From positions 32,001-96,000 of IMG/VR virus record IMGVR_UViG_3300027749_000047: a stretch of DNA of 64,000 nucleotides. One strand, written 5' to 3'. The notes below the pieces were generated by a model that was not told where the DNA came from, made no database searches, and saw only the letters and a program-made list of their open reading frames with translations. The position numbers were made by a program, and so were the translations under genes. The stretch is from a virus. The stretch's first letter is position 1. The number at the start of each line of letters is the position of its first letter. This document shows positions 7,435-40,700 of the stretch, in pieces.

Positions 7435-8259
7435 TTAACTGTGTTTTTTGTATGTACTGTTTTGTAATAGGTTACGAATGCTTGTGATTCGTTCACCTAC
7501 TTTTACTTCGCCAGGATCATTGCCACCCACTGTAGTCCAATGGTGTGACAAAACTGGTGAAATGTCATTTAACTGGTATTTTGCTCTTTGTGACGCACCC
7601 CAACCAGCATTATCATCATCAAAAGCAGTAATAACTACCTTTGGTGATAAATCTGCAATCATTTGCACTTGTGGTGCATGTAACCCCGAACCAAAGCAAC
7701 CTAAAACTGTCCAATGCTCTGGTATACCTGACTGATCTAAGGCCATAACGTCAGCAGCACCTTCAACCAAAACAATTACTCGTGATGGTTTGTATTCACC
7801 ATAAAAAGTTGCTGATGTTCTTACACCGTATGGGTATTTGTATTTGGCTTTTTCATCTTCATGCCTTGTAACTACACCAATAAGTTGATTGTTTTGATTT
7901 CTTATTGGATAAGTTGGTGAACCATCAACATAACTAGTTCCACATCGATGTTTAGTTGCTGTTTCAACACCAAACCTTTTTACCCAGTAGGGGCTAGGGC
8001 TATGTGCATCAAATATGTCAAGCCAGGCTTCTGAGTAAATGCGTGCTGGTACATCACCAGCAAGTACGCGAATAATGTCTTCAACAGTTGGTACATAACC
8101 TTCTGTTGTTCCATTAGCTTTACATGCGTGACAATACCAAACACCTTTACCTACGTTAACTGATGCTGAAGCGTTACCGTCATCGTGTACAGGGCAACAA
8201 AACGACCGCTCTAATCCTCTTCCTGTCGTTAAAGCCTCGTCTAACGTTATTCTTTTCAT
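7435..8259 (-). CDS. DNA primase (CHC2 zinc finger plus TOPRIM)
   Basis: CCPVHDD..SASVN..WYCHAC zinc finger; VLVEGAADV and AFDDDNAG TOPRIM motifs. Confidence 0.92.
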   Translation of the reverse strand: MKRITLDEALTTGRGLERSFCCPVHDDGNASASVNVGKGVWYCHACKANGTTEGYVPTVEDIIRVLAGDVPARIYSEAWLDIFDAHSPSPYWVKRFGVETATKHRCGTSYVDGSPTYPIRNQNNQLIGVVTRHEDEKAKYKYPYGVRTSATFYGEYKPSRVIVLVEGAADVMALDQSGIPEHWTVLGCFGSGLHAPQVQMIADLSPKVVITAFDDDNAGWGASQRAKYQLNDISPVLSHHWTTVGGNDPGEVKVGERITSIRNLLQNSTYKKHS

Positions 8260-8265
8260 GTTTTC

Positions 8266-9564
8266 CTAACTTATTTGTATTTCGTCAGCTTCATCGTCAG
8301 CCATTCGCATTTCTGTTGCTTTTTCAGCACTAATGTCATTAAAGCGCCCAAACGTTGGGTCAAACTCTGTAAACCATCGAGCGCCCGACTCACCATGGCG
8401 ATACTTAGTTAATGAATTAAGCAATACTCGTTTAGATATTCGCTTGAGTGTTATTAGTGCGTCTGCGTCTTGTCCAAGCGCATCAGATTGTGCTAAATGT
8501 TCAGCGCCTGGTGTTTTGTCTGAATTACCACCTGCACGGTTAATTTGCGCTGCAGCAATAATTGGAATGTTACGGTTAAGCGCTACTTCTTTTAGTTGGT
8601 TAGAAATAGCAGCCATGGCACGCCAATCTTCAATCGCTCTAGAGCCTGTGGTTGTATGCATCAAACCAACATAATCAACAATTACTAATGTGTTTTCATT
8701 AGCAACCGCTGAAATAACTGAGGCATCGCATCTACCTTTAGATGGATCATAAATACTGATTGTTCCTTTATCTTCACTTGACCATTTTTCCAAAAGGTCA
8801 CGGCGAGTATCTATGTCTATGTCTTGCCATGGATGTTTATAGTTTTGGAATGCTACGCGGTGAATACGGTCCTGTACTGATTTGGCAGGCATTTCTAAAC
8901 TAAAGTATGCGACATCCCAACCACCTTCGGCAGCAGCTACGGCATGTTGAATCATTTTCCATGATTTACCAATACCTAGACGCGCTGCAACAAACCACAA
9001 ATCTCCAGCCGCTATGCCACCTGTAAGGGTGTTTAACATACCAAATGGTACTGGACATATCTGCAGGTCTTCATTGCTTTCTAGGAGCGTTAAATCGGTT
9101 GCGTCAATACCCATGCCAATTGCTGGTTGTATTTGGTTTAGCCCGGTTTTTAGAATGTCAATTGCTTCATCGTTTGCATCTTCTGCAAGTGATGCTGATG
9201 CTTTGGACATTGCTGAGCGTAGTACGCGGTTGGTGTGTGCATCTGATAGTTGGCTTGCAGCCCACACAGGGTTTATGTCTGATGTGTATGGGAATCGCGC
9301 ATAGCGTTCTAGCAGTAAATGAATAGGTGGTGCACAGTTAGCATCTTGTTGGTATTTCATACAAAACTCGTGAATAGGTTTATGGCCTGATATTTGTTCT
9401 GTCTTAATACCAAACATTCCAGGCACATAAACGCCTGTATCTAAAAGCGCTGAAATAAATAATGCTTCCGGAGCATGATCTGCTGTAGAACCGTAATTTA
9501 TCTCTTTTTGTCTATTGCTAACTAACTGAACATAACTATCTTTTTCTTTTTTCTGTAATCCCAT
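8266..9564 (-). CDS. dnaB: DnaB-like replicative helicase
   Basis: Walker A AARLGIGKS, FSLEM, VIVDYVGL, AAAQINR, LAQSDALGQDAD and KYRHG. Confidence 0.93.
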   Translation of the reverse strand: MGLQKKEKDSYVQLVSNRQKEINYGSTADHAPEALFISALLDTGVYVPGMFGIKTEQISGHKPIHEFCMKYQQDANCAPPIHLLLERYARFPYTSDINPVWAASQLSDAHTNRVLRSAMSKASASLAEDANDEAIDILKTGLNQIQPAIGMGIDATDLTLLESNEDLQICPVPFGMLNTLTGGIAAGDLWFVAARLGIGKSWKMIQHAVAAAEGGWDVAYFSLEMPAKSVQDRIHRVAFQNYKHPWQDIDIDTRRDLLEKWSSEDKGTISIYDPSKGRCDASVISAVANENTLVIVDYVGLMHTTTGSRAIEDWRAMAAISNQLKEVALNRNIPIIAAAQINRAGGNSDKTPGAEHLAQSDALGQDADALITLKRISKRVLLNSLTKYRHGESGARWFTEFDPTFGRFNDISAEKATEMRMADDEADEIQIS

Positions 9565-10951: not shown

Positions 10952-11085
10952 GTACATCAGATATCATTACCGGAATGTTATTGGCCTTTTTAGGTGGGTC
11001 AATGTTTTTGTTAACGCTCATGATGATGTTTATGATATGGGATGATTATCAAGATAACAAGAAAAGACGTAACAGCAAAAAATGA
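10948..11085 (+). CDS. Small single-pass membrane protein (45 aa)
   Basis: Not in the ORF track: MSTSDIITGMLLAFLGGSMFLLTLMMMFMIWDDYQDNKKRRNSKK, with ATGA coupling at both ends. Confidence 0.65.
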   Translation: MSTSDIITGMLLAFLGGSMFLLTLMMMFMIWDDYQDNKKRRNSKK

Positions 11086-12587
11086 CCGAAGCACCTATCT
11101 TTAGCCTTGTCAGGCCACCAACTAATAAAGAAGAACTATGGTGGACTGTCAAGACTCTATGGGGTGTTGAATTACCTAGAGTACAGGTATGTCCAGATCA
11201 CACGGCTCCTTTTGATGCATTTGCGGAGGCTTATTTTGGTAACGAGTTTAACTGGGTTCTTTGGTATGGTTCGCGTGGTACTGGCAAAAGCTATATGCTT
11301 GCTCTTTTGGCCCTTACTAAAGCTGCTCTTCTTGAAATAAATGTGACACTATTGGGTGGGTCTATGGCTCAGTCACAAAACATTCACGAGCATGTTGAGT
11401 TTTTGACACAACACAAGCATGCACCTGTTCATGCAATTGAATCTATGATTAAAACACAGATTACTTTTACTGGCGGTAATTGGATTAGACCACTACCTGC
11501 ATCACAAAAGACTGTTCGTGGACCTCACCCTCAAATGACATTACTTGATGAGATTGATGAAATGGAACGCAAGATTTATGATGCTGCTATGGGTCAGGCT
11601 ATGACTAAACCCAATGCTAGAGGTGTTGAAGTTGCTGAAATGGTTGTTGCTTCGTCTACATGGCAAAATCCTGTTGGTACTTTTCAGTCTGTTATGGATG
11701 AGGCTTTGGCTAAAGGTATGCCTGTTCGTACATGGTGTTATCGTGAGCAGTTAAAGCCTCATGGGTGGATGGATCCTGATTTTATTGAGCGTAAGCGTAT
11801 GTCTGTTCCGGCTGAGATGTTTCGTGTTGAGTATGAGCTTGGTGAGCCTGCTGGTGGTTCACGTGCGTTTGATTTAGAGAAACTTAATAAGGCTTTTGTT
11901 GATTTAGAGATTGTTGATGAGCGTCATTCGGCTAATGATGATGAGTGGGTATTCGAACGACCTGTACCTACTGCTACTTATTCTGCTGGTGCCGATTGGG
12001 CTAAAGAGCAGGATAAGACTGTTATTGCTGTGTTTAGGCTTGATGAAAGTATTAGACGGCTTGTTTATTATCGTAGGTTTAATCGTACTGATTGGCCAAC
12101 AATGATTGGCGTGTTTAATCGAGTAACTACCGAGTATCAAGCTATGGCGGCGCATGATGCTACAGGTATTGGCAATGTTGTTCATGACATGGTTGATGAG
12201 CGAGTTATTAAATTTACTATGTCTTCTAATAAACGTACAGAGATGTTGACTAATTACATTACGGCTGTTGAGCAAGGTCGCTATAAGTTGCCTCGTAATA
12301 CTCCTGCGTACCTACAGCATAAGTCAACTACGGTTGAGGAAGTCTTTGGTGGTGGCGGTTGGAACTCTCATCTGTCTGATGATGTGTGTGCTTTTGCTTT
12401 GGCTCATCATGCTGCAGAGCGTATGGCTCCGCCGGCAGCTGGTGAGGGCGTTAAGAAGACAGAGTATGCTCCTGAAAAGTTTAAAGACATTACTCCTGTG
12501 TATGAGGATGATGGTCGTTATGTTACGCAAGTGGGTGCTGTTACTGTTAAAGATGATAGCGGTGTTGGAGTTTTTAATCTTTTCTAA
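11082..12587 (+). CDS. terL: Terminase large subunit
   Basis: Walker A GSRGTGKS, Walker B LLDEID, nuclease motifs GADWAK..D and SDDVCA. Confidence 0.93.
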   Translation: MTEAPIFSLVRPPTNKEELWWTVKTLWGVELPRVQVCPDHTAPFDAFAEAYFGNEFNWVLWYGSRGTGKSYMLALLALTKAALLEINVTLLGGSMAQSQNIHEHVEFLTQHKHAPVHAIESMIKTQITFTGGNWIRPLPASQKTVRGPHPQMTLLDEIDEMERKIYDAAMGQAMTKPNARGVEVAEMVVASSTWQNPVGTFQSVMDEALAKGMPVRTWCYREQLKPHGWMDPDFIERKRMSVPAEMFRVEYELGEPAGGSRAFDLEKLNKAFVDLEIVDERHSANDDEWVFERPVPTATYSAGADWAKEQDKTVIAVFRLDESIRRLVYYRRFNRTDWPTMIGVFNRVTTEYQAMAAHDATGIGNVVHDMVDERVIKFTMSSNKRTEMLTNYITAVEQGRYKLPRNTPAYLQHKSTTVEEVFGGGGWNSHLSDDVCAFALAHHAAERMAPPAAGEGVKKTEYAPEKFKDITPVYEDDGRYVTQVGAVTVKDDSGVGVFNLF

Positions 12588-15450: not shown

Positions 15451-16103
15451 TGACTATTTCTCAGTCTCGTTATGGCAGTAATGCTGAAGTTGGTCGTGCG
15501 CCTAATCGTAAGCCTGTTAAGGATCAGCATCATTGGGGTGCTGCGGCTGGTTTAGGTGTGGCTGGCACTGGTCTTGGTGCTACTCGCGCTTCTAGTGTTT
15601 TGAGCAATAATGCTGGCGCTTCTAAAGGTAAGGCTAATCAATCTTTTGCCGGTGCTCGTATTAGTCGCGGTGATGCTAATCTTCAGCGTCAACTTCAGGC
15701 CAATGAGCAGGCTAAATTAACTAAATTGCGTGGCCGTACTAAAGGTCAGGCTATGTGGATTACTGATGGTCAGGGTAAGCGCATTAACATTCCTGCTGGT
15801 GCTTCTAATGGTGATATTAAAAACATCATGACGGGTGTTTCTCGTGATAGCGCTAGATATTCGCAAAGGGCTGGTATGCACGATAAAGCTGCGCAGGCTT
15901 CGCGCGACGAGGCTCGTAAGCATACAGAAAATTATGTTCGTATGAATCGTTATAGTAAGTTAGCGAGTCGTGGTGGCAAGGTGGCTATTGGTGCTGGTTT
16001 GTTGGGCGCGGCGGGCGCACTTGCTAATACTGAGCATGCTCGTGGTACAGTTGGCTACAAGCGACCTACACGCGCACAATTAAGGGGACGTAATGTCAGA
16101 TGA
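15450..16103 (+). CDS. Basic Gly/Ala-rich protein with two hydrophobic segments (putative virion protein)
   Basis: TAATG coupling; segments WGAAAGLGVAGTGLG and VAIGAGLLGAAGALA. Confidence 0.65.
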   Translation: MTISQSRYGSNAEVGRAPNRKPVKDQHHWGAAAGLGVAGTGLGATRASSVLSNNAGASKGKANQSFAGARISRGDANLQRQLQANEQAKLTKLRGRTKGQAMWITDGQGKRINIPAGASNGDIKNIMTGVSRDSARYSQRAGMHDKAAQASRDEARKHTENYVRMNRYSKLASRGGKVAIGAGLLGAAGALANTEHARGTVGYKRPTRAQLRGRNVR

Positions 16104-17661
16104 TGTACGTTTGGCGGCTAGACAGACTGATGGGTTAAATGCGACACCTGCTGATATTCAGGCAATAGAGGAATTAAAAAATGCTTCTCCTTTTATGGAG
16201 CTTGGTACTACAGGTTTAAAGCGTGCCGGTGGTTACATTGATGAGCAGTTTCTTCCGCAGTTGCGTGGGCGTAAGGCTGTTCAAGTCTTTAAGGAAATGG
16301 CTGAGAATGACCCTTTAGTGGGTTCTTTGTGGTTCACTATTGATCGTCTTATTCGTAATGTTGAGTGGCGTGTTGAGCCTGCTAGTAAGTCTAAAGAAGA
16401 TACAGATAATGCCAAACTTGTAGAAACTTGTATGGATGACATGTCTCATACTTGGGATGACTTTATTTCTGAAGTTTTGTCTTGTGTCATTTATGGCTGG
16501 TCTTGGCATGAGATTGTTTATAAGCGTCGTATTGGTCCTTGGGAAAAAGATTCTTCTAAGCGTTCTAAGTACACTGATGGTCTTATTGGTTGGCGTAAGA
16601 TGCCTATTCGTGCGCAGGAAACTTTGTTGCGTTGGGCGTTTGATGATACGGGCGATGTGTCTGCAATGATTCAGTTGGCTCCGCCTCGTTATGAAACTAA
16701 AGTTTTACCTATTGAGCGTTCTTTGTTGTTTCGTTATCGTCATCAAAAAGGTAATCCTGAGGGTATGTCGATGCTTCGTCAGGCTTATCGTCCTTGGTAC
16801 ATGAAGAAGCGCCTTGAAGAGTATGAGGCTGTTGGTATTGAGCGTGACCTTGCTGGTTTACCTGTTGTTAAGGTTCCGGCAGAGTTTTTGCGTGCTAAGC
16901 CAGGTTCACAGCAAGCCCAAACTGTTGAAGCGTTTAAGCGCATGGTTAAGAGTGTGCGTCGCGATGAGCAAGAAGGCATTGTCTTTCCTATGGCTTACGA
17001 TCAAGATACTAAGCAACCTTTGTATTCTTTTGAACTCATGGGTGGCGGTGGTGCTCGTGCTTTTAATACTGATGCGATTATTCAGCGTTATGAGCAGCGT
17101 ATTCTTATGTCTGTGCTTGCTGACTTTATTATGGTCGGCCATGAGGGTAGCGGTTCTTACAGTTTGCATACCGATAAGACAGGTATCTTCCGTACATCTT
17201 TGAACTCTATTGCGGGTTCTATTGCGGATACGCTCAATCGGTATGCAATCCCTCGTTTGTTTTCTGTTAATGGTATGAAGCCTTCAGAGTTGCCTAAGAT
17301 TGTTCCTGGTGATGTTGATAGTCCAGATATTTCACAGTTGGCTCAGTTTATGTCTGCTATGTCTAGTACTGGTGTTACTTGGTTCCCAGATCCAACTATG
17401 GAAAACTTTATTCGCGATGCTGCGCGTTTGCCTAAACTTAATGATGAAGATGAAGAGCGTCGTCGTCAGATGCAGATGCGTACGGAAGCTACTCAGTATG
17501 CTCAGGCTAATATTGCGTATGTTCAGGCTAAGCAACAGTTGGCTCAAACTCTTATGGGTCAGATGCAGCAACCTGGTCAGCCGGGTCAACCTGCGCAACA
17601 AGATAGTCAACAAAATGCTGCGCAACAAGATAGTCAACAAAATCCTCAACAGGGGCAGTAA
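16093..17661 (+). CDS. Portal protein (DUF935/Mu gp29-like)
   Basis: 522 aa downstream of TerL; YGWSWHEIVY, GNPEGMSMLRQAY and ERDLAGLP; Gln-rich tail. Confidence 0.85.
   Translation: MSDDVRLAARQTDGLNATPADIQAIEELKNASPFMELGTTGLKRAGGYIDEQFLPQLRGRKAVQVFKEMAENDPLVGSLWFTIDRLIRNVEWRVEPASKSKEDTDNAKLVETCMDDMSHTWDDFISEVLSCVIYGWSWHEIVYKRRIGPWEKDSSKRSKYTDGLIGWRKMPIRAQETLLRWAFDDTGDVSAMIQLAPPRYETKVLPIERSLLFRYRHQKGNPEGMSMLRQAYRPWYMKKRLEEYEAVGIERDLAGLPVVKVPAEFLRAKPGSQQAQTVEAFKRMVKSVRRDEQEGIVFPMAYDQDTKQPLYSFELMGGGGARAFNTDAIIQRYEQRILMSVLADFIMVGHEGSGSYSLHTDKTGIFRTSLNSIAGSIADTLNRYAIPRLFSVNGMKPSELPKIVPGDVDSPDISQLAQFMSAMSSTGVTWFPDPTMENFIRDAARLPKLNDEDEERRRQMQMRTEATQYAQANIAYVQAKQQLAQTLMGQMQQPGQPGQPAQQDSQQNAAQQDSQQNPQQGQ
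17591..17644 (+). repeat. 27-bp tandem repeat in the portal Gln-rich tail
   Basis: CTGCGCAACAAGATAGTCAACAAAAT occurs twice. Confidence 0.85.
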
Positions 17662-17918
17662 TGAATTTAACACTTGAACGTAGGGCGCAAATAACTGTTG
17701 CTGGTGCTTGTGCTCACATTGCTCAGGAAAACAATGCTGATGCTGCCAAATTGGTTAATATGTTTGTTACTGATGTTATGGAAGAAAATGGCATTAAGTT
17801 TGATGAGGCTTTGGAGATGCTTGCGCGTGCGGGTATTGCTATTTCTATGATGGCTGCTGAGCCTGATGTTGAGGAAACTTTTCGCCGTATTACTTTGACG
17901 TTGAGTGAGTTGCAGTGA
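17661..17918 (+). CDS. Hypothetical protein
   Basis: Translationally coupled ORF after the portal. Confidence 0.65.
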   Translation: MNLTLERRAQITVAGACAHIAQENNADAAKLVNMFVTDVMEENGIKFDEALEMLARAGIAISMMAAEPDVEETFRRITLTLSELQ

Positions 17919-19107: not shown

Positions 19108-22100
19108 GTGTCATTGCTTGATGCGGTTCGTAAGGCTGTAGAGGAAGACCCTGAAGGTGGTTCTATTCTCATTGATGAGATTGTTTATTCTTTTTTGGCT
19201 GATGAGGCTGAGCAGATTCGTCCTGAAGTTCAGGAAATGTTATCTGAGTTTATGGCTGACCGTGTTGCTGTCGCTAAACGTGCGTTAGGTCGTGCTTATG
19301 TTGAAACTATGGCTAATGGTGAATACCCTGACCCTGAAGTTCAGAAGAATGCTGAGTGGATTGCTGGCATCGAGCGTTTTGTTGCTTCAGATATTTCTAA
19401 GGCTGATGATCGTCCTTTTGATGAGCGGTTGCATCCTCGTGGTAGCGGTGGTCGTTTTAGCACTAAAGCGCCTCATGCGGCTGAGGTAGCGGCTGGTGCT
19501 TATGTTGGTTATGCTGGCGCACAGCATCCTAAAAAGCATAGTGCTACTACTAAAACTCATGTAATGCCCGATGGTAGTGGTAAAAATGTTTATTCTGAGG
19601 GTATTGATGTAGATACTAAGAAACTTGTTGACCAGCATCAGTATCAATGGGATGCAGCTAATCAGCAGGCTAGTGATATTTTAAATAGTTTTGGTGGCGA
19701 TGCTAAAAATGTTAATCTACATATCACTGTTCAGAATAAACATAATGACAAAATGCGCGACATTATTGTCCCAGGTAGTGATGCTAAAGGTGGTTTGCCT
19801 GAAGATGCTGCTTGGTCATTAAATGATGATTACAAGTCTATGAGTGTTGAATCAGCAAAGTTAGATAGTCCTGATAAGCAAATTATGATTGATAGGCGCG
19901 TGGATGCCTACAATGTTATGGGTAATGCTGGTGGTCCTGCTATGGCAGAGTTAGGCGCTGTCGACCCTGCACGCTATTCTCAGTTACGCACTTCTATGGG
20001 CCGTAATTACATGCGCGATAACAAAAAGTCTAAAATGACTACGTTTTTTGACCGATTGCATGCTGGTGGTGGAGTTCTTCGAGAAGTCCCAGGTATGGAA
20101 AAGTATGGTCGTTTTGCACAGTTTGTTGGCGTTAATGGCCCAGAGGCTGAAGAAGCGCTTGGTCCTTATGCTAAACAAGCTGCGTATCGTTACCGCGGCA
20201 CTGAGAAAGAGCCAGATTTAGAAATAGTTACACAGTTCAATAGCACTACTATGAATGCTGTTAATGCTGTGGCTGTTAATCCTAATAATAAGTTGGCTAT
20301 GGATCATCTTGAAAATGAAATTTCTGGTCAGGGTGAGAAGGATGTAGTTGCTACTTCTGCTGTTTATGAAATGAATCACTTAAAGCGCACTCGTGGTGGT
20401 GAATACACTCCGGATGAATTAGCGCTTAATGTTCGTGCTGATGTGGCTACACGTCATTTGTTAAACACTTTACCAACTGACCCTTTTGTAGCTGATTTGT
20501 CACGCGCTGCAGGTAATGTTTTGCCTTCGCAAGGAATTATTATTGATGCTGATGGCGATGTTGTTTCGCAGTCTGTTGGTTTTGCGGATGACCACTATTT
20601 GCCGTTTGATCTTAAGAATCTTAAGTCTTTGCGTGGCGGTCAGTATGTTCGTACGCGCCAGCAAGGCGGTTTGACTGCTGAGGATGTTTACGCGTCTATT
20701 CGTACGGGTGCGCGTATGGCTACGGTTGTTTCATCTTCTGGTGTGTTTTCTTTAGAGTTTGACCCTAACTTCCGTGGTGCTCGCGCCAATTCTGATAAGG
20801 CTCGTCAGATGGTTGATCGTTATGTCAGCATTCTTGATGCAGTTCAAAATTCTAATCTTTACACTCAAGACATTGACCAGAAAGAAAAAGAGCGCTTAAA
20901 GGGTTTGGCTAACTCAATGGGTGCTACTGATGCAGAACGTAAGGATTTGTTTAATCATTATGTTGATCAAGCACGTAACGCTGGTGAGAATCTTAATGAA
21001 CAAGATTTACAGTTAATTCAAGAAGATGCTGTTAAACAGGTTGATAATGAAGGCTTTAAGTACAAGAATGAGCGTTACAATCGCCGTGTTAATGAAGTGT
21101 TTGATGAAATGGCTGAGCAAAAGCGTGCGCAACGCGTTTCGCGTCTAAATCTTAATTCAAAGGGTTATGATGCTGCGTTGCAGACTTTGCAGCAACAGTT
21201 CCCGTATTTTATTCGTTCTGTTAAGTATCAGCCTTTGACTGCTGATAAGAATGGCCAGCGCGGCTTTTTACAGTCTCTTGGTCAGTCTGGTGCTGCAGGT
21301 GCTCGTCAAAAGTTGTCTGCTAAAGACCAGGGTTATGTTAATGCTGGTGCTGGTGACCTTCGACCTAATGTTGGTTACCCAAAGCCTGCTGAAGAAAAGA
21401 TTGGTGCTGGCGCTACTAGCGAAACTAAACCAACTACTGGTGGTACTGAATCTAGTACTGCAGAGGCACCTAAGCCTAAGTCTGTTCCTAAGGCTAAATT
21501 CTTGGGTGATTTGGAAGTATTTACTGCTAGTGCCAATAAAGAAGCGGCGTCTGAAGTTGAAGAATTAGCATCTATTTTCCGTAGTCATGACCCAGGAATT
21601 CAAGGTGTTCCAGGTACTACTGAGTGGTCTGTAGCAAAAGGCGCTTTTGAAACTACTGGCGATAAACGTTTGGCTGCTAAGTATTTATTAGCTGCTTCAA
21701 ACAATGGCGAGCATGATGCTTTGGCTAAGGCTTACAAGTCAGACCCTGCTATTGTTGGTGCTGTTTTGTCAGATGAAAAAGCAGTTAAAGAAGCTCTTTC
21801 TGCTCTGTATGGTTCTGCTTGGCAAGGCGAGGCAGAAATTAGTTTTGGAATGTCACTTAAAGATTTGCAGGGAAATGTTCATTATGTGGCCGATAAAATT
21901 AACGAGGCTTTGGAATTAAAAACACCCTATGCCCCTGCATCTCATGGCCCTGCTGGTTTATTTTACACAGGCAATAAGCCTCAAGAAATGGCTGAGTTGG
22001 CTGCAGTTAACGATAAAGCAGGTCTCAAGAGCATGATTAATGCTAGCCCTGCTGTTGCCGAAATTGCTTCAGATCTTGATGGTTTAGATAATGCACAAAT

Positions 22101-22584
22101 GAGTGAACTTGTTGGCGAGCGTGTTGCTGTGCTTAAGAAAGCCAAGGATGCTCGTATTAGTGAATTGTTTAGCGCTGAGGCTGCTATTAATCCAGATGAT
22201 GCGCCCGCTAAGGCTTTATCAAAAGCAGATATTACTCCAGATGAGTGGAAAGCCGCTATGGGCTCTAGTGCTAGTTCACATTTTGGTACGTTCCAACAAT
22301 TCTTACCTGAAACCATTGATCAGCGTGCTCAGGCTACCCAGACTGCTTGGGGTGCTATTTACACGTCTAATTTGATGGATAAGTTGGAGGAGTTGAAAGC
22401 ATCTTCCGCTAAGGCAGGTGGTGTTGAGGCCCCAAAAGCGGAACCCCCAGTGGGGGAATTAGCGAAAAGCCAGCCGGTGTCCTCGTCCCGACGGGTGCAA
22501 GTCGCGAAGAACCATTGGCTAGCCCAAGAGGTAGCGGTGAGGCGCGAGGCGGGCCTACCTCTGGTGCCGACCCGCAAAAGGTAG
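19108..22584 (+). CDS. Large head-associated protein with HPR motif and degenerate JAB-like domain; probable -1 frameshift extension
   Basis: ISKADDRPFDERLHPRGSGGRF; IIIDADGDVV..GGLTAEDV; slippery site at 22431. Confidence 0.7.
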   Translation: MSLLDAVRKAVEEDPEGGSILIDEIVYSFLADEAEQIRPEVQEMLSEFMADRVAVAKRALGRAYVETMANGEYPDPEVQKNAEWIAGIERFVASDISKADDRPFDERLHPRGSGGRFSTKAPHAAEVAAGAYVGYAGAQHPKKHSATTKTHVMPDGSGKNVYSEGIDVDTKKLVDQHQYQWDAANQQASDILNSFGGDAKNVNLHITVQNKHNDKMRDIIVPGSDAKGGLPEDAAWSLNDDYKSMSVESAKLDSPDKQIMIDRRVDAYNVMGNAGGPAMAELGAVDPARYSQLRTSMGRNYMRDNKKSKMTTFFDRLHAGGGVLREVPGMEKYGRFAQFVGVNGPEAEEALGPYAKQAAYRYRGTEKEPDLEIVTQFNSTTMNAVNAVAVNPNNKLAMDHLENEISGQGEKDVVATSAVYEMNHLKRTRGGEYTPDELALNVRADVATRHLLNTLPTDPFVADLSRAAGNVLPSQGIIIDADGDVVSQSVGFADDHYLPFDLKNLKSLRGGQYVRTRQQGGLTAEDVYASIRTGARMATVVSSSGVFSLEFDPNFRGARANSDKARQMVDRYVSILDAVQNSNLYTQDIDQKEKERLKGLANSMGATDAERKDLFNHYVDQARNAGENLNEQDLQLIQEDAVKQVDNEGFKYKNERYNRRVNEVFDEMAEQKRAQRVSRLNLNSKGYDAALQTLQQQFPYFIRSVKYQPLTADKNGQRGFLQSLGQSGAAGARQKLSAKDQGYVNAGAGDLRPNVGYPKPAEEKIGAGATSETKPTTGGTESSTAEAPKPKSVPKAKFLGDLEVFTASANKEAASEVEELASIFRSHDPGIQGVPGTTEWSVAKGAFETTGDKRLAAKYLLAASNNGEHDALAKAYKSDPAIVGAVLSDEKAVKEALSALYGSAWQGEAEISFGMSLKDLQGNVHYVADKINEALELKTPYAPASHGPAGLFYTGNKPQEMAELAAVNDKAGLKSMINASPAVAEIASDLDGLDNAQMSELVGERVAVLKKAKDARISELFSAEAAINPDDAPAKALSKADITPDEWKAAMGSSASSHFGTFQQFLPETIDQRAQATQTAWGAIYTSNLMDKLEELKASSAKAGGVEAPKAEPPVGELAKSQPVSSSRRVQVAKNHWLAQEVAVRREAGLPLVPTRKR
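22431..22456 (+). other. Candidate programmed -1 ribosomal frameshift signal
   Basis: In-frame heptamer C CCA AAA, 6-nt spacer, then CCCCC-AGT-GGGGG hairpin. The -1 frame opens just after TGA 22425-22427 and continues into the AAA ORF. Confidence 0.75.
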
Positions 22585-23378
22585 AAGAAATTAGTGCTGA
22601 CCTTCATTCAATGATTGGTATGAATAGTGTCGCTAACGAAGTTGATAGTCTTGTTGCTACTGGTTTAATTAACCAAAAGCGTGAAGATGCTGGTTTGCCT
22701 GTTTCTCGTAATGCTAAGCATTTGGTGTTTGTTGGCGAGCCTGGTACTGGTAAAACTACGGTTGCTAAGAAATTGGCTAAGTTGTATAACGCTGCTGGTC
22801 TTTTGCCTAGTAGTAAGGTTGTTGAAACTGACCGTAGTAAGTTGGTTGGGCAGTATGGCAATAACATTTCTGATCGTGTGCGTCAAGAGTTTGAGAAGGC
22901 TCGTGGTGGTGTTTTGTTTGTTGATGAGGCTTACACTCTTGCGGATGACCAGTTTGGTAAAGAAGCTGCTACTCAGTTGATGAAAATGATGGAAGAGCAT
23001 AAAGACGATACCGTGGTTATTGTTGCTGGTTATCCGGGTGAAATGGATAAGTTTATGAGTCTTAATCCTGGCATGAAGTCGCGTTTCTCTAAAACAGTTA
23101 ATTTCCCTAATTATTCACATAAAGAACAAGTTCAAATTCTTGAGCAACGTATGGCTAAACATAAAGATGTTGTTGATAGTCCTAAGACCGCTAAGGCGCT
23201 AAATAATGCTGTTCGTGTTGCTACTGCTGAGGGTGGCAATGGTCGCGCTATGGAACGTCTACATGCTAAGTTGGAAGAAAGCCGTAATGTGCGTTTGAGT
23301 CGCATGCCTGATGTATCTGAGGAAGATTTGTCAGTATTTACTATTGATGATGTAAACTCGGCTATTGCTTCTAATTGA
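22515..23378 (+). CDS. SpoVK/CbxX(CfxQ)/EccA-family AAA+ ATPase (probably expressed as a frameshift fusion)
   Basis: HLVFVGEPGTGKT, VLFVDEAYTL, VIVAGY and NPGMKSRF. The TTG start has no clear RBS. Confidence 0.9.
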   Translation: MASPRGSGEARGGPTSGADPQKVEEISADLHSMIGMNSVANEVDSLVATGLINQKREDAGLPVSRNAKHLVFVGEPGTGKTTVAKKLAKLYNAAGLLPSSKVVETDRSKLVGQYGNNISDRVRQEFEKARGGVLFVDEAYTLADDQFGKEAATQLMKMMEEHKDDTVVIVAGYPGEMDKFMSLNPGMKSRFSKTVNFPNYSHKEQVQILEQRMAKHKDVVDSPKTAKALNNAVRVATAEGGNGRAMERLHAKLEESRNVRLSRMPDVSEEDLSVFTIDDVNSAIASN

Positions 23379-23390
23379 AAGTAGGGGATT

Positions 23391-25886
23391 GTGAATCGTT
23401 GGTGGGCCAGCCCAGAGACTTCTACAGTTGTTCTAAAATCTGTTGATGATTCTGATGTTATCAATGGCGTTGGTGTGGCTATTCTTGGCTATCACGGGCT
23501 CGCTATGGGCGTTTTACAGCCTTTAGTTACTCAGACACTAGTTGATACTTATACGGTGCGTAAGGCTTTGTCTGGGATTGATTTAGAGCCTATTGCTAAA
23601 GCGTTATCTGAGGCTACTAAACCAGTTATGGGTGAGGCTTCTGAACGTTATGGAAAGTTGCTTGCTGATGCTATTCATGAGAAAGCTACTGATTCTACTG
23701 AGCGTCTTTTACATACTTGGACTAATAATGGTATGCCGTGGCCTAATGCGATTGAAAGGGCTGCTGAAGTTCATGGCGTTCCTATTGAGCGTTTGGGTCG
23801 TTATGCCACTGTTATGAAAGGCGCTACGGTTAATCCTCATATTCGTGCTGATTATGCTGATCGTGAGCTTATGACTTACGCATCCGTTATAGGTAGCCGC
23901 GAGGCTTCTATTTCTCCTGAATTAATTTCTAAACAATCTAGTGAGTTTGAAGAGTTACATCCCCGGTCTGTTAATGGTCAATTTACTGATAAAGCTGAAG
24001 TTTTAGATTTACGCGCCAAATTAAATAAATTTAAAAAACTTAAGAATGCACGCGAAGTTGGGTCACAGATTAAGCGCGGTACTTTTGAATTTGCTAAACC
24101 ACAAACGTCTAATCAAAAGCATGTAAAAGTTCAACCTCAAGTTAAAACTATGGCTACTGAAACTACTGGCACTAATTTTCGTACTAACTTTAAAAAAACT
24201 CCTTTTAAAAAACCTAATTTTAAAATAGAGCCAAAACCTGAACATCCAACAGTTGCTACTTTGTTTGTTGAAGGCGATTTATACATCCCTGTTAATCAAG
24301 ATTTGCTTAAAGATTTTCAAAAGCAAGGTAATCAGTTTGTTGCTGGTGATGTGGTTGATTTGTCACCTGATCGTTTGCAAGGCGAATTGATGGCTTTGGG
24401 TAAAAATGGTTTTAGTGATTACATTGAAACGCGTGGTTTGAGAACTGTTATTGACGAAAAAACTGTGTTTTTGCGGTGTTCTTCTACTCCTGTTTATAAA
24501 AACCGCGCTGAAGTTTTAACTAATTCTTCTGGTTTTCCTCATGCTGATGATTTTGTGGAAAGTTTTGTTGTTCCTAAAGCGCATTTTAGGTTGGTTACTG
24601 GTAAACCAGAACCTCGTAGTTTGATGTCTTTAATTAATCAGGGTAAGTATAAACAATATGCGGCGTCTGATGATGATATGTTTGAAGACAAATTTGTTGT
24701 TGATTCTAGTGATTTTTTGATTTATGACATTCAGTTATTGAATGATGATCCTGAATTATGGGAAGAAGATATTAGTAAAAACTTGTCTGAGGATGAATTA
24801 CAGCATTTTAATGAAGAGCATCCTCGGTCTGTTAACGGTCAGTTTGCTGATAAAAATGTTTCTGATTTGAAAGCTAAGTTGGATAAGCGCAATAAGATGG
24901 CTCGTCAGCGTGAGATTGGCCAAAAGGCTAAACAGGGTAATTTTGAGTTTAAGCAGTCTAATCGTAGTAAAGTTGAGTCACGTCAGAAGGCTGAAGTTTT
25001 GCGTAATGAAAAAGCACAGGCTGCTACTAATTTTAAGCAAAGTTTTAGAAATAATTTTAAGTATGTTTATCGTCAAGAAACAGAATACCCTTTAGATTTT
25101 GCTAATCTTTATGGTGTTATTATTCCTAGCGGTCATAGGTCTAAAATGTATGATCAGTGGCCTCATTTTAGTGATACAGACACTTATGGCGTAAAAAATG
25201 GCAGTGAAGCAAAAGAAATGCCTTCTGGTAGTCTTAGTGATTCTCGAACAATTGCAAAAGTTTTTGACCAAACGTATGGAAGCATGATGCTTTTGAAAAA
25301 AGAAAACAGAGTAGCAGGTGATGTAGCGTTGTCGCCTGTAATCGGCAACATTATTACACATGCTGATTATCGTGAACCCGAAGAAACAATAAAAGCATTT
25401 AGAATTGAGCCTAATGGTATGAATAGCGGTGAACATTCTTTTAATACTTCTGCTGAAGCAAAGCATGCTGCTAGTACTTATATGGAAAAAATTGAGCCAT
25501 CTAATGCTAATTTAGTTTGGCAACCTGAAGCGCGTTTTAATGAAGATGGCGGTTTTGATGCTATTTTGGCTGGTTATGAGCCTGAAGAAAAGTATCAAAT
25601 TATTATTGGTTCTTTTTCTGACATGCATGACACAAATGTATTTATGAATAAATTAAATAAACTTAAATTAGATAATGAACAATTTGAGCATTATTTGTCT
25701 AAGAATGTTGAGATAGTTCCATATACTGAAAATGATGTTGAAAATCTTAGGGATTTGCTAGCGTACGGCGATAGTGATGAATTAATTGATGAATTTAACG
25801 GTGCATCTAGGGATAAGGTCACAAATCCGCCTATTGAGTTGTATCAAATTAAGTTTAAAGGCAAGCGTGGAGAAAGCATTGTGTAA
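23391..25886 (+). CDS. Putative internal head polyprotein with two HPR-motif modules
   Basis: ISKQSSEFEELHPRSVNGQF and ISKN..FNEEHPRSVNGQF are an internal duplication. Confidence 0.65.
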   Translation: MNRWWASPETSTVVLKSVDDSDVINGVGVAILGYHGLAMGVLQPLVTQTLVDTYTVRKALSGIDLEPIAKALSEATKPVMGEASERYGKLLADAIHEKATDSTERLLHTWTNNGMPWPNAIERAAEVHGVPIERLGRYATVMKGATVNPHIRADYADRELMTYASVIGSREASISPELISKQSSEFEELHPRSVNGQFTDKAEVLDLRAKLNKFKKLKNAREVGSQIKRGTFEFAKPQTSNQKHVKVQPQVKTMATETTGTNFRTNFKKTPFKKPNFKIEPKPEHPTVATLFVEGDLYIPVNQDLLKDFQKQGNQFVAGDVVDLSPDRLQGELMALGKNGFSDYIETRGLRTVIDEKTVFLRCSSTPVYKNRAEVLTNSSGFPHADDFVESFVVPKAHFRLVTGKPEPRSLMSLINQGKYKQYAASDDDMFEDKFVVDSSDFLIYDIQLLNDDPELWEEDISKNLSEDELQHFNEEHPRSVNGQFADKNVSDLKAKLDKRNKMARQREIGQKAKQGNFEFKQSNRSKVESRQKAEVLRNEKAQAATNFKQSFRNNFKYVYRQETEYPLDFANLYGVIIPSGHRSKMYDQWPHFSDTDTYGVKNGSEAKEMPSGSLSDSRTIAKVFDQTYGSMMLLKKENRVAGDVALSPVIGNIITHADYREPEETIKAFRIEPNGMNSGEHSFNTSAEAKHAASTYMEKIEPSNANLVWQPEARFNEDGGFDAILAGYEPEEKYQIIIGSFSDMHDTNVFMNKLNKLKLDNEQFEHYLSKNVEIVPYTENDVENLRDLLAYGDSDELIDEFNGASRDKVTNPPIELYQIKFKGKRGESIV

Positions 25887-25921: not shown

Positions 25922-26635
25922 ATGGATTCGTTAGAGATTGTTAAGTCGCTTCATAAGGTTGACCCAGGCTTTGTTGACTTGTGTAAAACACTATTTGGCG
26001 ATGCTATTTACCCTGAGGTTATTTGGGAATATTTGTATACCCCTGAGGGTATTTCTAAGATGGGTCCTGATCCGTCAGAGTTGAATACTTCTTCTAGCAA
26101 TAAGCGTGGTCGTTTGGTTCCACAAGAGCGTAATCCTCAGGTTCCTCGAGTTAAGGTACTGGCTAAGCATTCTCATAAAGGCGAACAAGTCGATAATACT
26201 GATGCTATGAGTAAGTCTGATGATGATTTTGACATTACTTGGTCTGGTGAGTTTGCTAAAGCTGATGAGGATAAGCGTCAGGTTTTTGGCTGGGCTTCTA
26301 TTGTTGAGGTTGATGGCACTCCGGTTGTTGATCGTCAGGGTGATTGGATTACTCCTGAAGAGATTGAAAAGGCTGCTTATCAGTATGTTTTGAATTCTCG
26401 TAAAGCTGGGCATCAGCATAAGCGTGATGGTGATCAGCCTTTTCATGCAGGTGACATGATTGAGTCTTTTGTTATGACTCCTGAAAAGGTTGAAAAGATG
26501 GGTCTTCCTGACGATACGCCTATTGGCTGGTGGGTTGGTTACAAGATTCATGATGAGGATGCTTGGCAGAAGGTTAAGAAAGGCGAAGTTACTGGCTTTT
26601 CTATTCATGGTCGCGGTAAGCGCAAAGAAGTCTAG
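25922..26635 (+). CDS. Prohead maturation protease, XkdF-like
   Basis: KRQVFGWAS..DRQGDWI..IEKAAYQY..HQH..IESF..GWWVGYK..WQKVKKGEVTGFSIHG. Confidence 0.85.
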   Translation: MDSLEIVKSLHKVDPGFVDLCKTLFGDAIYPEVIWEYLYTPEGISKMGPDPSELNTSSSNKRGRLVPQERNPQVPRVKVLAKHSHKGEQVDNTDAMSKSDDDFDITWSGEFAKADEDKRQVFGWASIVEVDGTPVVDRQGDWITPEEIEKAAYQYVLNSRKAGHQHKRDGDQPFHAGDMIESFVMTPEKVEKMGLPDDTPIGWWVGYKIHDEDAWQKVKKGEVTGFSIHGRGKRKEV

Positions 26636-31469: not shown

Positions 31470-32099
31470 ATGTACCGTCCTGCAACTGTTCTTCGCTTAG
31501 CTAAGGCTCTTACCATTAATGGTGTGGCTCGTGCTAAGGGATATGTTCTTACTGATGCTGAAGTGCTTAGTATGAAGACGTTGCAGTCTATTATTGCGAA
31601 GCGGTGGGTGGTTCCTGTTCCTGGGCCATCCGCCGCTCGCCTTAGTACTGCTCGCCAGCAATCTGCAGATGGTACTTTTAGTAATGGTATTTTAAACTCT
31701 ACTGTTATGACTGATACTTCGTCTAATAATTCTGTAAAGTACACTCCACATCCTACATATTTGAATCCTCAAGTTCTTCGCGATTATGCTAAGGATAATA
31801 TTCCTTATGCTTTGACTGGTACTGTTACTGGTCAGGCTGCTGGCGCTGTGGTTTTGAATTGGTATGCTCCTGTTAATGCTCCTGCATTGCTAACAGATTA
31901 TGTTGTTCAGTATCGTACGTCTGCTGTTGGTTCTACTGCTGCAGGATCGTTTACTACTTTTTCTGATGGTACTTCTACTGCAGTTACTGCAACTGTTACT
32001 GGTTTGACTTCTGGTGTTAGTTACGATTTTCAGGTTGCTGCAGTTATTAATAGTGTTACTGGCACTTATTCAAATATTTTTACTACTACACCTAAGTAG
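31470..32099 (+). CDS. Fibronectin type III domain virion protein
   Basis: VVLNWYAP..DYVVQYR..ATVTGLTSGVSYDFQVAAV. Confidence 0.8.
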   Translation: MYRPATVLRLAKALTINGVARAKGYVLTDAEVLSMKTLQSIIAKRWVVPVPGPSAARLSTARQQSADGTFSNGILNSTVMTDTSSNNSVKYTPHPTYLNPQVLRDYAKDNIPYALTGTVTGQAAGAVVLNWYAPVNAPALLTDYVVQYRTSAVGSTAAGSFTTFSDGTSTAVTATVTGLTSGVSYDFQVAAVINSVTGTYSNIFTTTPK

Positions 32100-36920: not shown

Positions 36921-36991
36921 CTTAATACATGTCCGCATCTACACCTCGTAATAAGCGTAAGCTTAAACAGACCAAACGAAGGAAATATATC

Positions 36992-37378
36992 ATGGCACGT
37001 AAGATTGCTACTCTTGAAGATTTATTGAAGAAGCCTGCTCGCACTAAAGAAATTATTATCAATGTTCCTACGGGCAAGTCGTCTACTACTGACTTTGTTG
37101 TCACTATTAAGGCGATTGGTTCGAAGGCTTATGATGATCTGTTGGCTGCTCATCCCCCAACTAATGAGCAGAAGAAGGAAGGCACTTCGTACAATATTGA
37201 TACGTTTGCGCCTGCTCTTATTTCTGCTTGTTCTGTAACTCCGGCATTGTCTGAGGAGCAGGCTACACAGATTTGGACTTCTAATGAGTGGTCTCGCGGT
37301 GAGTTGACTGAGTTGTTTATTGGGTGTGTTGAGGTTAATTCTAAAGGCCTTGATGTCCCTTTCAACGAAGTCGGCTGA
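36992..37378 (+). CDS. Tail assembly chaperone (G)
   Basis: Between the major tail and tape measure genes; RBS-preceded ATG at 36992. Confidence 0.8.
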   Translation: MARKIATLEDLLKKPARTKEIIINVPTGKSSTTDFVVTIKAIGSKAYDDLLAAHPPTNEQKKEGTSYNIDTFAPALISACSVTPALSEEQATQIWTSNEWSRGELTELFIGCVEVNSKGLDVPFNEVG

Positions 37379-37719
37379 GGTACGACCCGACTTTCTATAT
37401 GGAGGTCGCATGGTGCTCAGACCATGGGCTTCCTCACTCAACTTTGTTTAGTTGGGATGAGGATGACCGAGCTAAACTTGCAGCATATTTGTTGGAGTCT
37501 GGCGAGAAGTGTCAAATGTGTGGCACTGCGGGCTGGGAGTGGGAAGAAGATAGGTATGCTTACGAACCTATTACTCACCAGTGTTGGGGTTGTTACATGA
37601 AGGATCGTGCTACGGACGAGAATGACCGCTTGCCAGGCTCTACAATAACATTAGTACCTTCTTATGTTGCTGAGAGTGTTCGTAATCAAAAGACAAAGAG
37701 GCCTGAGCGAAAGGATTAA
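37357..37719 (+). CDS. Tail assembly chaperone GT, -1 frameshifted segment
   Basis: In-frame heptamer C CCT TTC (37357-37363). The -1 frame reads QRSRLRYDPTFYMEVAWC into ORF 37399..37719. Confidence 0.8.
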   Translation, partial: PFQRSRLRYDPTFYMEVAWCSDHGLPHSTLFSWDEDDRAKLAAYLLESGEKCQMCGTAGWEWEEDRYAYEPITHQCWGCYMKDRATDENDRLPGSTITLVPSYVAESVRNQKTKRPERKD

Positions 37720-37721
37720 CT

Positions 37722-40700
37722 GTGTTTAATGAAGATGTAACAGTTGATTTTAATGCCAACGTAGGCCCTTACACGTCTTCTCTTGGTCAAGCTTTGGCTA
37801 TGACCAATCAATTTAGTGCGGCTAATGATATCGCGATTGCTAAATTGGGCAATCTTAATAAGATTTCTTTATCTCTTATTCAGTCTACGGCTGCTTTTAC
37901 TGGTGCTAATAAGGTTGCTGTTGCGCAGGCTGCGGCTTATGAGCAAAAACTTTCTTCACTTAATGCTACTGCCAAGATTGCTGGTAAACAGTTTGAGGGT
38001 CTTGGCTCTGTAACTATGAAGTTTGCTCGCCAGTTTCCTGTGGGTATGGATAAGGCGATTGAGACTACTAAGACTTTAGCAACGTCTGGCGTTACTACAA
38101 CTAAACAGATTCAAAAGTTGGGCCAGGAGTTTATTAAACTACAGGCTGCTTCTGGCGAGTGGGGCTCTGGCATGCAGCAGGACATGCTTCAGGTTACTCG
38201 TTCTTTTGGTAACTCTACTAACATGATTAAGGGTTTTAGCGATTCCCTTGTTTCTGTTACAGCAAAGTATGGCGCTTCAGCTTCGTCTGTTTTGGCTTTT
38301 TCTAAAGCTATTGCGCCTATTGCTTCTGTAGTTGGTATTAGCCAAGCTTCTGTGTTTGGTTTGTCTACGGCGATGTCTCGTCTTGGTGAAGACGGTTATC
38401 GTTCTGCTAACGCGTTTAACAAGGTTCTTTTGGATATGAACCGGTCTATTCGTACTGGTTCTCCTGAAATTCGTGAGTATGCCAAAGTTTTGAACATGTC
38501 TACGGACTCTTTGGGTAACTTGTTTAAGAGTGATCCTACTGAAATGATTTTGCGTTTTACTGACGCTATCAATAAGCAAGGTTCGCAGGCTGTTACGACT
38601 CTTGATAATTTGGGTCTTGATGGTGTTAACACGTTTAAGTCTTTGCAGGCTTTGTCTAAGTCTGGTGACTTGCGTCAAATTGTTGGCGATGCTACTAGTT
38701 CTTACAATAATGGGTCTGCTAATGCAGGTGCTACTTCGGCATTAGGCGGGGTTAATGACCAATTGTCTAAAATGCAAGAAACTATGTCGCAAACTACTGC
38801 TGAGGCAGGTAAACCATTTCTGTCGTTTTTAAATAGCGTTTTGGGTGTATCAAACGGTATGGCTGAAGGCGTTCATGGTTTGGTTACTGCTCTTTCGGGG
38901 CTTGGACCATTGCTTCCAGTTTTGACTAGTTTGTGGACAATTCTTAAAGGTATTGCTGTCATTCAACTTGGTCGTCTTGGCTTAAGTATGTTTACAAATT
39001 CTAATTTTGGGCAACAATTTTTTGCTGGACGTACCCAAGCTATTAACGGGCAGGCTTTTGGACCTAATGCTTTGTCTACTGCTGGCGCTCGCGTTGGTCA
39101 AGCATTTGGCACGCTTTTTGGTGGTAAGGATCCAGTTACAGGTGCAAGAGGCGGACCGATTGGGATGCTTAAGGGTGGCGCTCAGTGGATTGCGCAGGCT
39201 TATACCAACGCTAATGCCAACCTTTACAACGCTGACCCAAGTAACTCTCGTATGCGTACCGATGCCGGTATGGCTGCTTCTAATAATAAATTTATGCTTA
39301 AAAATGGTGGAACAATAATGTCTGCTGAAGAGCAGGCTATTCGTTATGGTAGAGATTCAAATAATGTAATTCGTCCTGCAACGATGGCTACTATGCCTAA
39401 TGCAATTGCTAGTCAACTTGCTATGCAAATGGGTGCGTATGGTTCGCCTAATGGTGAGTATGGTGCGTCGCAACGTTTGGCTGTACAAAAAGCAATGTTT
39501 AATGATATGCGTCAAACTTCAGGTACTTTAGGGTTTTTTAAAGATGCTGTTAAGTATGCAGGCAAAAATGTCGGTGAATTTGGTAAGTCTATGGGCACTA
39601 GAGTTAAGGATTGGGTTAAACAAGGCGCTATTACTGGTGTTTCTGAAGAAGGTACAGCTATTCGTGGTGGTCAGCGTTTTGGTGCTTTAGGCGGCGCTTT
39701 AAGCGGAATGATGGGAATGCTAGGATCTACTATCGGAATTATGGCTGTCATGGCTGCTGCGGGTTTTGTATCTAAAGCAATTAAGCAAAATAATGAGCGC
39801 CAAACTGGTACTGGTTTTAGTGATGCTTATTCTGTGTACAATGATTTTGCTACTAAAGCAGGTTTGCCAACGCAGTCTTACACTAATACAAATGCTATGT
39901 ATGATCCTATGGCTTGGGCGAGTTATTATGCAAAAAGTGCTAAGTCGCCTAGGCAAGCAACTAAAATGTCAACGTCGGAAATTTTAAATGCTTTAAAAAC
40001 TGATTACAAAGCTAGCTATACTTTTAATACTCAAAAAGAGTTATTAACTGGTACTGGTTTGGGTATTCAAGCAAGAATGATGGCTGGTCCTAATGCTAGT
40101 CCTGAAGTTATTAGCCGTTTGACGCAAGATGCGCTTGCTGGCACAAAAAATGCTACTTTGGCGCGTGCCGCTGGTAATTACGCTACTGGTAAATCAACTT
40201 ACGGTAGTTCTAATAGTGGTCTTTATACCGACGCTTTTCAATCGGCTGCCGACACAATGACTTATACTGATGCTGTGGCTCACCGTCAAAGTGCCTACGG
40301 CGGAACTATGGCACAGTTGATTCGACAAGAGGCGACTTCTAATATTAATAATACTGCCCTAAAATTTGGAACCGGTACTATCCGTATGGCTACGCTTTCC
40401 GAGGCAGTAAAAATTCTTAGGGGCACTGCTGGCATTTCAGGCTCAAAGGGCTATAGAGATGTGCAGAACATGAATGCAGCTCGTATTGTTTCGGAATTGC
40501 TTGGTGTAAAGTATGACCTTAATTCTTGGAATTTACTCAAACAACAACGTGTTAACTCAGCTGTGTCTCAGTCTACAAGTGACACTGATCCGCTAAGTGT
40601 ATTTTTTGCTAATACTTCTGACAAAAAATCACTCCCAAGTAATTCTTTTTACCAATATTACAAAACTTTGATTAAGGGTGGCGGTTACGGCTGGGAGACG

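Follow-up and report, generated by a model that had tools for sequence, protein, structure and literature searches.

The window analysed here is a stretch of 64,000 nucleotides (nt) of DNA from a lake-water phage, positions 32,001 to 96,000 of the IMG/VR virus record IMGVR_UViG_3300027749_000047, and coordinates refer to it unless another locus is named. It contains a large gene encoding a protein of 1158 amino acids (aa) and, overlapping its 3' end, an open reading frame (ORF) for an AAA+ ATPase that lies in the -1 frame. Near the end of the large gene is a candidate slip site at which a programmed -1 ribosomal frameshift very probably fuses the 1158-aa gene product to the ATPase. The features of this junction are as follows.

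19108..22584, + strand: 0-frame gene for the 1158-aa protein of no known family, GTG start (from the ORF list and its translation)
22416..22423, + strand: Shine-Dalgarno (SD)-like stretch AGGTGGTG, doubling as Gly-Gly codons in the 0 frame
22425..22427, + strand: TGA that closes the -1 frame, 3 nt 5' of the heptamer (direct reading)
22431..22437, + strand: slippery heptamer C CCA AAA (X XXY YYZ), in phase with ORF 19108-22584
22431..22584, + strand: GC-rich two-frame coding stretch from the heptamer to the 0-frame stop at 22584, an overlap of 154 nt
22437..23378, + strand: -1-frame reading after the slip, 313 codons plus stop, a linker and then the AAA+ ATPase
22444..22456, + strand: candidate stimulatory hairpin CCCCC-AGT-GGGGG, 6 nt after the heptamer
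22482..22496, + strand: -1-frame linker motif L-V-P-T-G, 5' of any start codon of that frame
22489..22581, + strand: conserved C-terminal tail of the unshifted product, RV.V(L)SK.HPL...V..R...GLPLV (from the tails of 26 junctions)

In the 0 frame of ORF 19108-22584 the candidate slip site reads GCC CCA AAA GCG. The -1 frame is open from 22428 to 23378, its stop codon lying at 23376-78, and the predicted fusion comprises 1110 + 313 = 1423 aa. Upstream, the AGGTG at 22416-20 ends 10 nt 5' of the heptamer. The GC content is 59-63% across 22400-22600, as opposed to ~43% in the flanks. The first-pass annotation of this DNA had proposed such a frameshift on the strength of the heptamer, the TGA, the open -1 frame, the hairpin, the AGGTG and the 0-frame end at 22584, all of which lie where it had placed them; the GC-rich dual-coded stretch and the arithmetic behind a fusion of about 1423 aa are likewise correct. 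It had also remarked that the TTG and ATG starts available to the ATPase lack a clear ribosome-binding site (RBS), and indeed no SD-like motif was found 5' of TTG 22515, ATG 22611 or ATG 22620, in contrast to about 18/26 other genes of the same block, which have one. The proposed frameshift, with its dnaX-like layout, is supported by the conservation of 26 junctions, by dual coding and by the existence of fused homologues.

To describe the junction across relatives, homologues of the large protein were collected with their DNA, along with the results of a protein-profile scan of viral contigs (79 loci) and of two DNA-pattern scans. De-duplication left 26 different junctions at which large protein and ATPase are encoded by separate ORFs. 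As many as 24 of these were retrieved by protein similarity and are therefore independent of the heptamer motif; among 79 metagenome stretches that fit the DNA pattern, four (three of them different) are family members, and the other 75 have no such arrangement. The ATPase lies in the -1 frame in 26/26 junctions, with an overlap of 109-529 nt, and in every one an in-phase CCCAAAA is found inside the overlap. Indeed, CCCAAAAG is the sole invariant block in ungapped alignment A3, which holds 19 of the junctions, and the sequence around it is variable. The codon 5' of CCA is NNC without exception and encodes A, G, S, N, P, F, L or V. Within the heptamer Pro is always CCA and Lys always AAA, with no synonymous replacement, and the base that follows (22438 in the window) is G in 26/26, in a 0-frame codon for A, V, D, G or E. 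Since NNC, CCA, AAA and G are kept across differing amino acids, selection acts on the nucleotides, as re-pairing of tRNAs requires, and not on the peptide. In the -1 frame the invariant G gives Ser or Arg.

Downstream of the heptamer, the -1 frame is stop-free up to the start of ATPase homology (51-80 codons) in 26/26 junctions. Only 2/26 have no stop over this stretch in the +1 frame, and only 1/26 has none over an equal length of -1 frame 5' of the heptamer. The heptamer, the position of the hairpin and the overlap, whose conservation the first-pass annotation had named as a point to check, are all kept in the relatives, and no RBS for the ATPase is conserved among them. An ATG at the Met of a 'MIGM' motif is kept in about 21/26 junctions, nearly all loci being without an SD there, and L103, L105 and L115 have no ATG at this position.

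Substitution patterns point to coding in both frames of the overlap. In ten close pairs, we counted the differences per site separately for the first, second and third position of the 0-frame codons. The values 5' of the heptamer are 0.23, 0.18 and 0.385, as expected of 0-frame coding. Those 3' of the 0-frame stop are 0.04, 0.291 and 0.09, position 2 being position 3 of the -1 frame, as expected of -1-frame coding. Within the overlap the values are flat and low (0.11, 0.12 and 0.14). The three-base periodicity is lost only here, which indicates dual coding.

Each frame of the overlap also carries a conserved peptide of its own, and both products therefore appear to be functional. The 0-frame tail motif is present in nearly all lineages, where the -1-frame linker is variable and of low complexity. 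Within this linker, LVPTG recurs in most lineages (in two copies in L003/L097), and its codons vary synonymously in the -1 frame and non-synonymously in the 0 frame. In L116 it stands in a different register relative to the 0-frame motif. At many loci LVPTG precedes the first ATG, GTG or TTG of the -1 frame, which comes at codon 52-81. A reading of LVPTG as a sortase-type motif was dropped on inspection, as its position 2 is not Pro and a hydrophobic anchor is absent. The two products contain similar strings, GVLVPTG in the -1 frame (22479-22496) and GLPLVPT in the 0 frame (22555-22575); this likeness may be due to chance, or the motif may be needed by both products.

The candidate stimulatory elements recur by position. 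Stem columns differ between lineages, leaving no single consensus structure, and we therefore scored perfect stems by their position. A perfect stem of at least 5 base pairs (bp) starts 4-9 nt 3' of the heptamer in 21/26 junctions (81%), against 23% of shuffles of the same 45 nt and 26% of other positions in the same genes; stems of at least 7 bp occur in 50% of junctions and in 3-5% of controls. Their sequences vary by lineage: CCCCC/GGGGG, ACCTCCC/GGGAGGT, GGCCAGC/GCTGGTC, AGCGGCC/GGCCGCT, GCCGGCT/AGCCGGT, GATGGC/GCCATC and an 11-bp stem in L097. Such variation in sequence at a conserved position is what one expects of a structural element. On the other side of the heptamer, a match of at least 5 nt to AAGGAGGTGATC (the extended SD) lies within 22 nt in 81% of the 26 junctions, compared with 13% of control positions and 26% of shuffles, its spacing to the heptamer varying from 2 to 16 nt.

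By its sequence, the product of the -1 frame is a CbbX/EccA/SpoVK-type AAA+ ATPase. It matches PF00004 (E = 2e-17), and its translation contains the Walker A motif GEPGTGKT, the Walker B motif VLFVDEA and SRF. A match to AAA_lid_6 (PF17866) is weak and below the cut-off in the window's ATPase; this domain is on record in the ATPases of relatives. The best solved-structure matches are EccA1 (9lur, E = 9e-40) and CbbX (3zuh/3syk, E = 3e-36), aligned over residues 51-300 of the -1-frame product P0002 (start residue 51-52). This homology begins at 22578, about 10 residues 5' of the first ATG, and a start at the 'MIGM' Met would remove about 10 residues that align with CbbX and EccA1. Differences between the ATPases of close pairs pile up at third codon positions (0.29 versus 0.04 and 0.09), which places the ATPase under strong purifying selection. 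Searches of 50,697 phage records gave no blastn match to 21800-23400, and a tblastn search with the ATPase recovered no more than distant SpoVK-like genes that stand in other contexts.

The same two modules also occur in a single frame. At locus L170 the large protein and the ATPase form one protein of 1434 aa (P0010) that shares 32% identity with the window in the core and 41% in the ATPase. In-frame fusions of 1240-1500 aa, carrying PF00004 and PF17866, account for 51 among the 120 matches listed in a search with the L170 core domain; querying with the ATPase for longer proteins brought up an overwhelming number of bacterial proteins with several AAA modules and was uninformative on fusions. 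An unrooted maximum-likelihood tree of the core domain (108 rows) resolves the frameshift forms as one clade (27 rows, support 99) and the fused proteins as another (52 rows, support 97), both apart from the ATPase-free forms. Since the tree is unrooted, it is compatible with change in either direction between the fused and the frameshift forms. Apart from L118, the ATPase-free relatives are without the heptamer, and in them the following gene reaches back over the stop by only about 4-97 nt. L118 branches as the sister of the frameshift clade and retains both C CCA AAA G and an SD-like stretch. Its -1 frame (8109-8690) is open for 195 aa and fills the gap to the next gene, with no match to an ATPase or to Pfam; this reading frame may represent another cargo served by the same kind of slip, or else a chance ORF in a genome of about 70% GC.

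We therefore favor a scenario in which most ribosomes on the 1158-aa gene would read through the conserved 50-residue tail and terminate at 22584. A fraction would pause while tRNA-Pro occupies CCA and tRNA-Lys occupies AAA; the hairpin 6 nt downstream, and probably also pairing of the upstream AGGTGG with 16S rRNA, would promote this pause. Both tRNAs would then re-pair one base back, onto CCC and AAA. From there the ribosome would read the -1 frame, first a flexible linker and then a complete CbbX/EccA-type AAA+ ATPase, and the resulting fusion would measure ~1423 aa. One gene pair would thus give rise to two products that share a body of 1110 residues and differ at the C-terminus, and the efficiency of the slip would determine their ratio. 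That ribosomes slip here, how often they do so, and what the hairpin and the SD-like stretch contribute are matters that we infer from the sequence.

Several observations weigh against this scenario. On the tree the frameshift form arose once, and the 26 junctions therefore represent long maintenance (core identity down to about 41%), not 26 independent events. The window's own 5-bp hairpin is weak and, taken alone, non-significant (folding energy -10.9 kcal/mol, z = -1.75; 15/200 shuffles fold equally well), its significance coming from the comparison with relatives only. A simple perfect stem is missing from the expected place in 5/26 junctions, and the SD-like stretch is inseparable from selection on the conserved Gly-Gly codons, which use the same bases. 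The conserved 'MIGM' ATG could let some ATPase start on its own. Finally, in E. coli a heptamer of the form X XXA AAA shifts less efficiently than one of the form X XXA AAG (PMC4066793), and the host of this phage may have another set of tRNA-Lys.

It is possible, in principle, that the junction consists of two ordinary overlapping genes and that the ATPase starts alone, at TTG 22515 or at the conserved ATG 22611, with no fusion being made. Conservation in the overlap would then be due only to the 0-frame tail, and perhaps to RNA folding by which translational coupling is adjusted. Gene callers do annotate separate genes, the 'MIGM' ATG is present in about 21/26 junctions, and SD-less initiation occurs in many bacteria. 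However, independent initiation does not explain why NNC-CCA-AAA-G is invariant across eight different preceding amino acids, why 51-80 codons of -1 frame 5' of the ATG are free of stops in 26/26 junctions, or why LVPTG is synonymous in the -1 frame only. Nor does it account for the absent SD, for the relatives fused in frame, or for the loci (L103, L105 and L115) that are without an ATG at the 'MIGM' position. We consider it improbable. Even less probable is that RNA polymerase slips on the C4A4 run, such that some of the mRNAs gain or lose one base and then encode the fusion. The outcome would be the same, two products with a common N-terminus, and certain phages and insertion elements do make use of transcriptional slippage (PMC5009743); however, known slippage-prone runs are far longer than four C plus four A. 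The strict X XXY YYZ phasing with the 0 frame, a hairpin 4-9 nt downstream and an SD-like element are typical of slippage by the ribosome, not by the polymerase.

The explanation to which we give the least credence is that the split is an artefact or a sign of decay, in which an assembly indel has interrupted an in-frame fusion, or an old frameshift is tolerated and the ATPase has become a pseudogene. In-frame fusions do exist in relatives, and the ATPase of L001 has an extra break that its near-twin L002 does not share. However, the in-frame fusions form a separate sister clade, and the same phase relation is found in 26 different junctions from many independent assemblies. The first-pass annotation had itself raised the prospect of an indel error, and we looked for one at contig level, in contigs of two freshwater runs from different studies: no indel was found at the slip site in either. 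Moreover, the ATPase is under strong purifying selection, and the 0-frame tail keeps a conserved motif of its own, which is not expected of a broken fusion. A programmed ribosomal frameshift remains, for these reasons, the reading that we prefer.

The assemblies offered some further observations. The 31-mer at 22412-22442, which covers the SD-like stretch and the heptamer, is a node, in the contig graphs of two lake metagenomes, common to at least two co-occurring strains. These strains differ on either side of it, and one loose end matches a third, L003-like junction. As this node is common to diverged strains, the slip site is an island of identity. The break in L001 splits the ATPase into ORFs of 122 and 134 aa (3762-4534), which are intact in the near-identical L002 (3762-4535); it is probably an assembly or strain indel. 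The source record, of 135,953 bases, has a second copy of the locus 67,455 bases away, with 88% protein identity and the same junction arrangement; the two copies lie at 22428-23375 of the window and at 1501-2445 of L175 (121883-122827 of the record). The junction of the second copy is identical to that of L001/L002. The contigs of relatives measure 66-70 kb, and the record looks like two related ~68-kb genomes joined end to end, not like one genome of 136 kb.

The slip site resembles several known recoding sites, each in part. C_CC.A_AA.A is shift-prone in E. coli, at >0.1% without stimulators, and C_CC.A_AA.G is the most efficient there, reaching 54% with a pseudoknot (PMC4066793). The closest parallel for the heptamer is gene 5 of Lactobacillus phage A2, an experimentally described case of -1 frameshifting in a major head gene (listed in PMC5009743), which ends ACC CCA AAA GCG TAA in the A2 genome record. 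This gene (orf5, gp5A/gp5B) shares with the window the heptamer and the next codon (GCC CCA AAA GCG in the window), its place in the head module, and, by prediction for the window, two products with a common N-terminal body. However, the A2 heptamer lies directly 5' of the stop, whereas in the window the overlap is 154 nt long and both arms are conserved. The A2 extension is a small immunoglobulin (Ig)-like decoration of the major capsid protein (PMC5009743), that predicted for the window a 313-aa linker plus enzyme.

The layout of the signal in the window is like that of E. coli dnaX (tau/gamma). There, too, an SD-like element stands ~10 nt upstream of an X XXY YYZ heptamer whose last codon is for Lys (PMC5009743/PMC4066793), a hairpin follows after a spacer of 5-6 nt, and an AAA+ protein is involved. 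The heptamers differ (A AAA AAG in dnaX, C CCA AAA in the window), and so does the consequence of the slip, since slipping in dnaX leads to truncation at an immediate -1 stop but would here add a whole domain. Like the G/GT site of lambda, the window has a conserved site for a probable -1 slip in a morphogenesis gene of a tailed phage, with a fixed ratio of short to extended product in the lambda case (PMC5009743). However, G/GT lies between the genes for the major tail protein and the tape measure, and its products are small chaperones without an enzyme domain, whereas the site in the window lies between those for the portal and the prohead protease. In logic, it resembles retroviral Gag-Pol, where slippage by -1 close to the 3' end of a gene of the structural module links an enzyme to the smaller share of the copies, in a proportion fixed by how efficient the slip is. 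There is no homology between the two, Gag-Pol is translated in eukaryotes, and packaging of the fusion is proven for Gag-Pol and hypothetical for the window.

The in-frame fused relatives, such as L170 P0010, have the same core, the same type of ATPase and a length near the predicted 1423 aa. They differ from the window in having one open frame, no heptamer and no short product with an HPL/GLPLV tail. CbbX (the red-type Rubisco activase) and EccA1 (type VII secretion) are cellular proteins with partners or N-terminal domains of their own (TPR in EccA), whereas the N-terminal partner predicted for the window's ATPase is a 1110-aa phage protein joined to it by recoding. The literature that we searched contains no description of this slip site, or of an ATPase fusion made by frameshifting in a phage head module. 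The frameshift mechanism is canonical; it is the cargo, a whole AAA+ motor in the head-assembly block, that is unusual for phage recoding.

The genes around the junction are as follows.

11082-12587: large terminase (TerL)
16093-17661: Mu-type portal
17661-17918: ORF of 85 aa
17915-19096: ORF of 393 aa
ending at 23378: AAA+ ATPase
23391-25886: gene for an 831-aa product
25922-26635: S78-type prohead protease
37722-43127: tape-measure protein, 1801 aa

The order of TerL, portal, large gene, ATPase, 831-aa gene and protease places the slip site in a head-morphogenesis block. The same gene order is found in relatives, where homologues of the 1158-aa protein measure 1130-1185 aa. The first-pass annotation had called this protein a head protein. 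Its place in the head-morphogenesis block stands, but the protein matches no known family or solved fold, and 'head protein' is a putative label taken only from the position of the gene between the portal and the prohead protease. No Pfam or PHROG family was matched. A highly conserved core lies at about residues 330-760, and a model of residues 300-770 gives a confident fold, with a predicted local distance difference test (pLDDT) score of 87.7 and a predicted template-modelling (pTM) score of 0.82. However confident this fold, no sequence relative of the core profile was found in the PDB, and Foldseek of the model against the PDB gave no match with an E of 0.001 or better. VIA-align yielded only helical-hairpin matches (Z <= 6.2) and a weak deaminase-like row (Z 5.0). 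In a comparison with MuF, hhalign of the core profile against SPP1 gp7 gave a probability of 0.3%, and Foldseek against BFVD returned only weak rows titled 'minor capsid protein', at a TM score of about 0.19.

Further downstream, an in-phase C CCT TTC is found at 37357-63, close to the end of ORF 36929-37378. ORF 37399-37719 lies in the -1 frame relative to it, just 5' of the tape-measure gene at 37722. This heptamer is a candidate for a frameshift of the G/GT type in the tail chaperone genes, as expected at this place. The tape-measure protein (37722-43127) has an NlpC/P60 peptidoglycan hydrolase domain near its C-terminus (residues 1566-1665).

What purpose might be served by joining an AAA+ motor to this protein in only some of its copies? 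The first-pass annotation had supposed that a minor fraction of the protein would take the ATPase into or onto the virion, which is conjecture. An appealing but doubtful scenario, which we offer tentatively, is a strategy like that of Gag-Pol, in which the slip would set the ratio of an AAA+ protein-threading motor that is tethered to an internal head or ejection protein and packaged in the capsid. Perhaps the motor is even delivered to the host with the DNA, and cleavage at the linker motif by the prohead protease encoded nearby might set it free. By analogy with CbbX, which threads the tail of the Rubisco large subunit, it might act on the C-terminal tail of the unshifted copies.

The recoding known from tailed phages mostly adds small extensions, such as the T domains of tail chaperones or Ig-like decorations of capsid or tail proteins, whereas here it would add a complete ATPase. 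Three architectures of one module, frameshift, in-frame fusion and ATPase-free, are directly comparable within one family, and a signal of 60-70 nt with all three classic elements, the SD-like one as a candidate, makes the site clean and experimentally tractable. Gene annotation would also be corrected for a group of lake and soil phages that is widespread and in which the ATPase is now called as a separate, N-terminally truncated gene. The question that this junction raises for the biology of the family is why these phages would make tail-bearing and motor-bearing versions of one protein at a fixed ratio.

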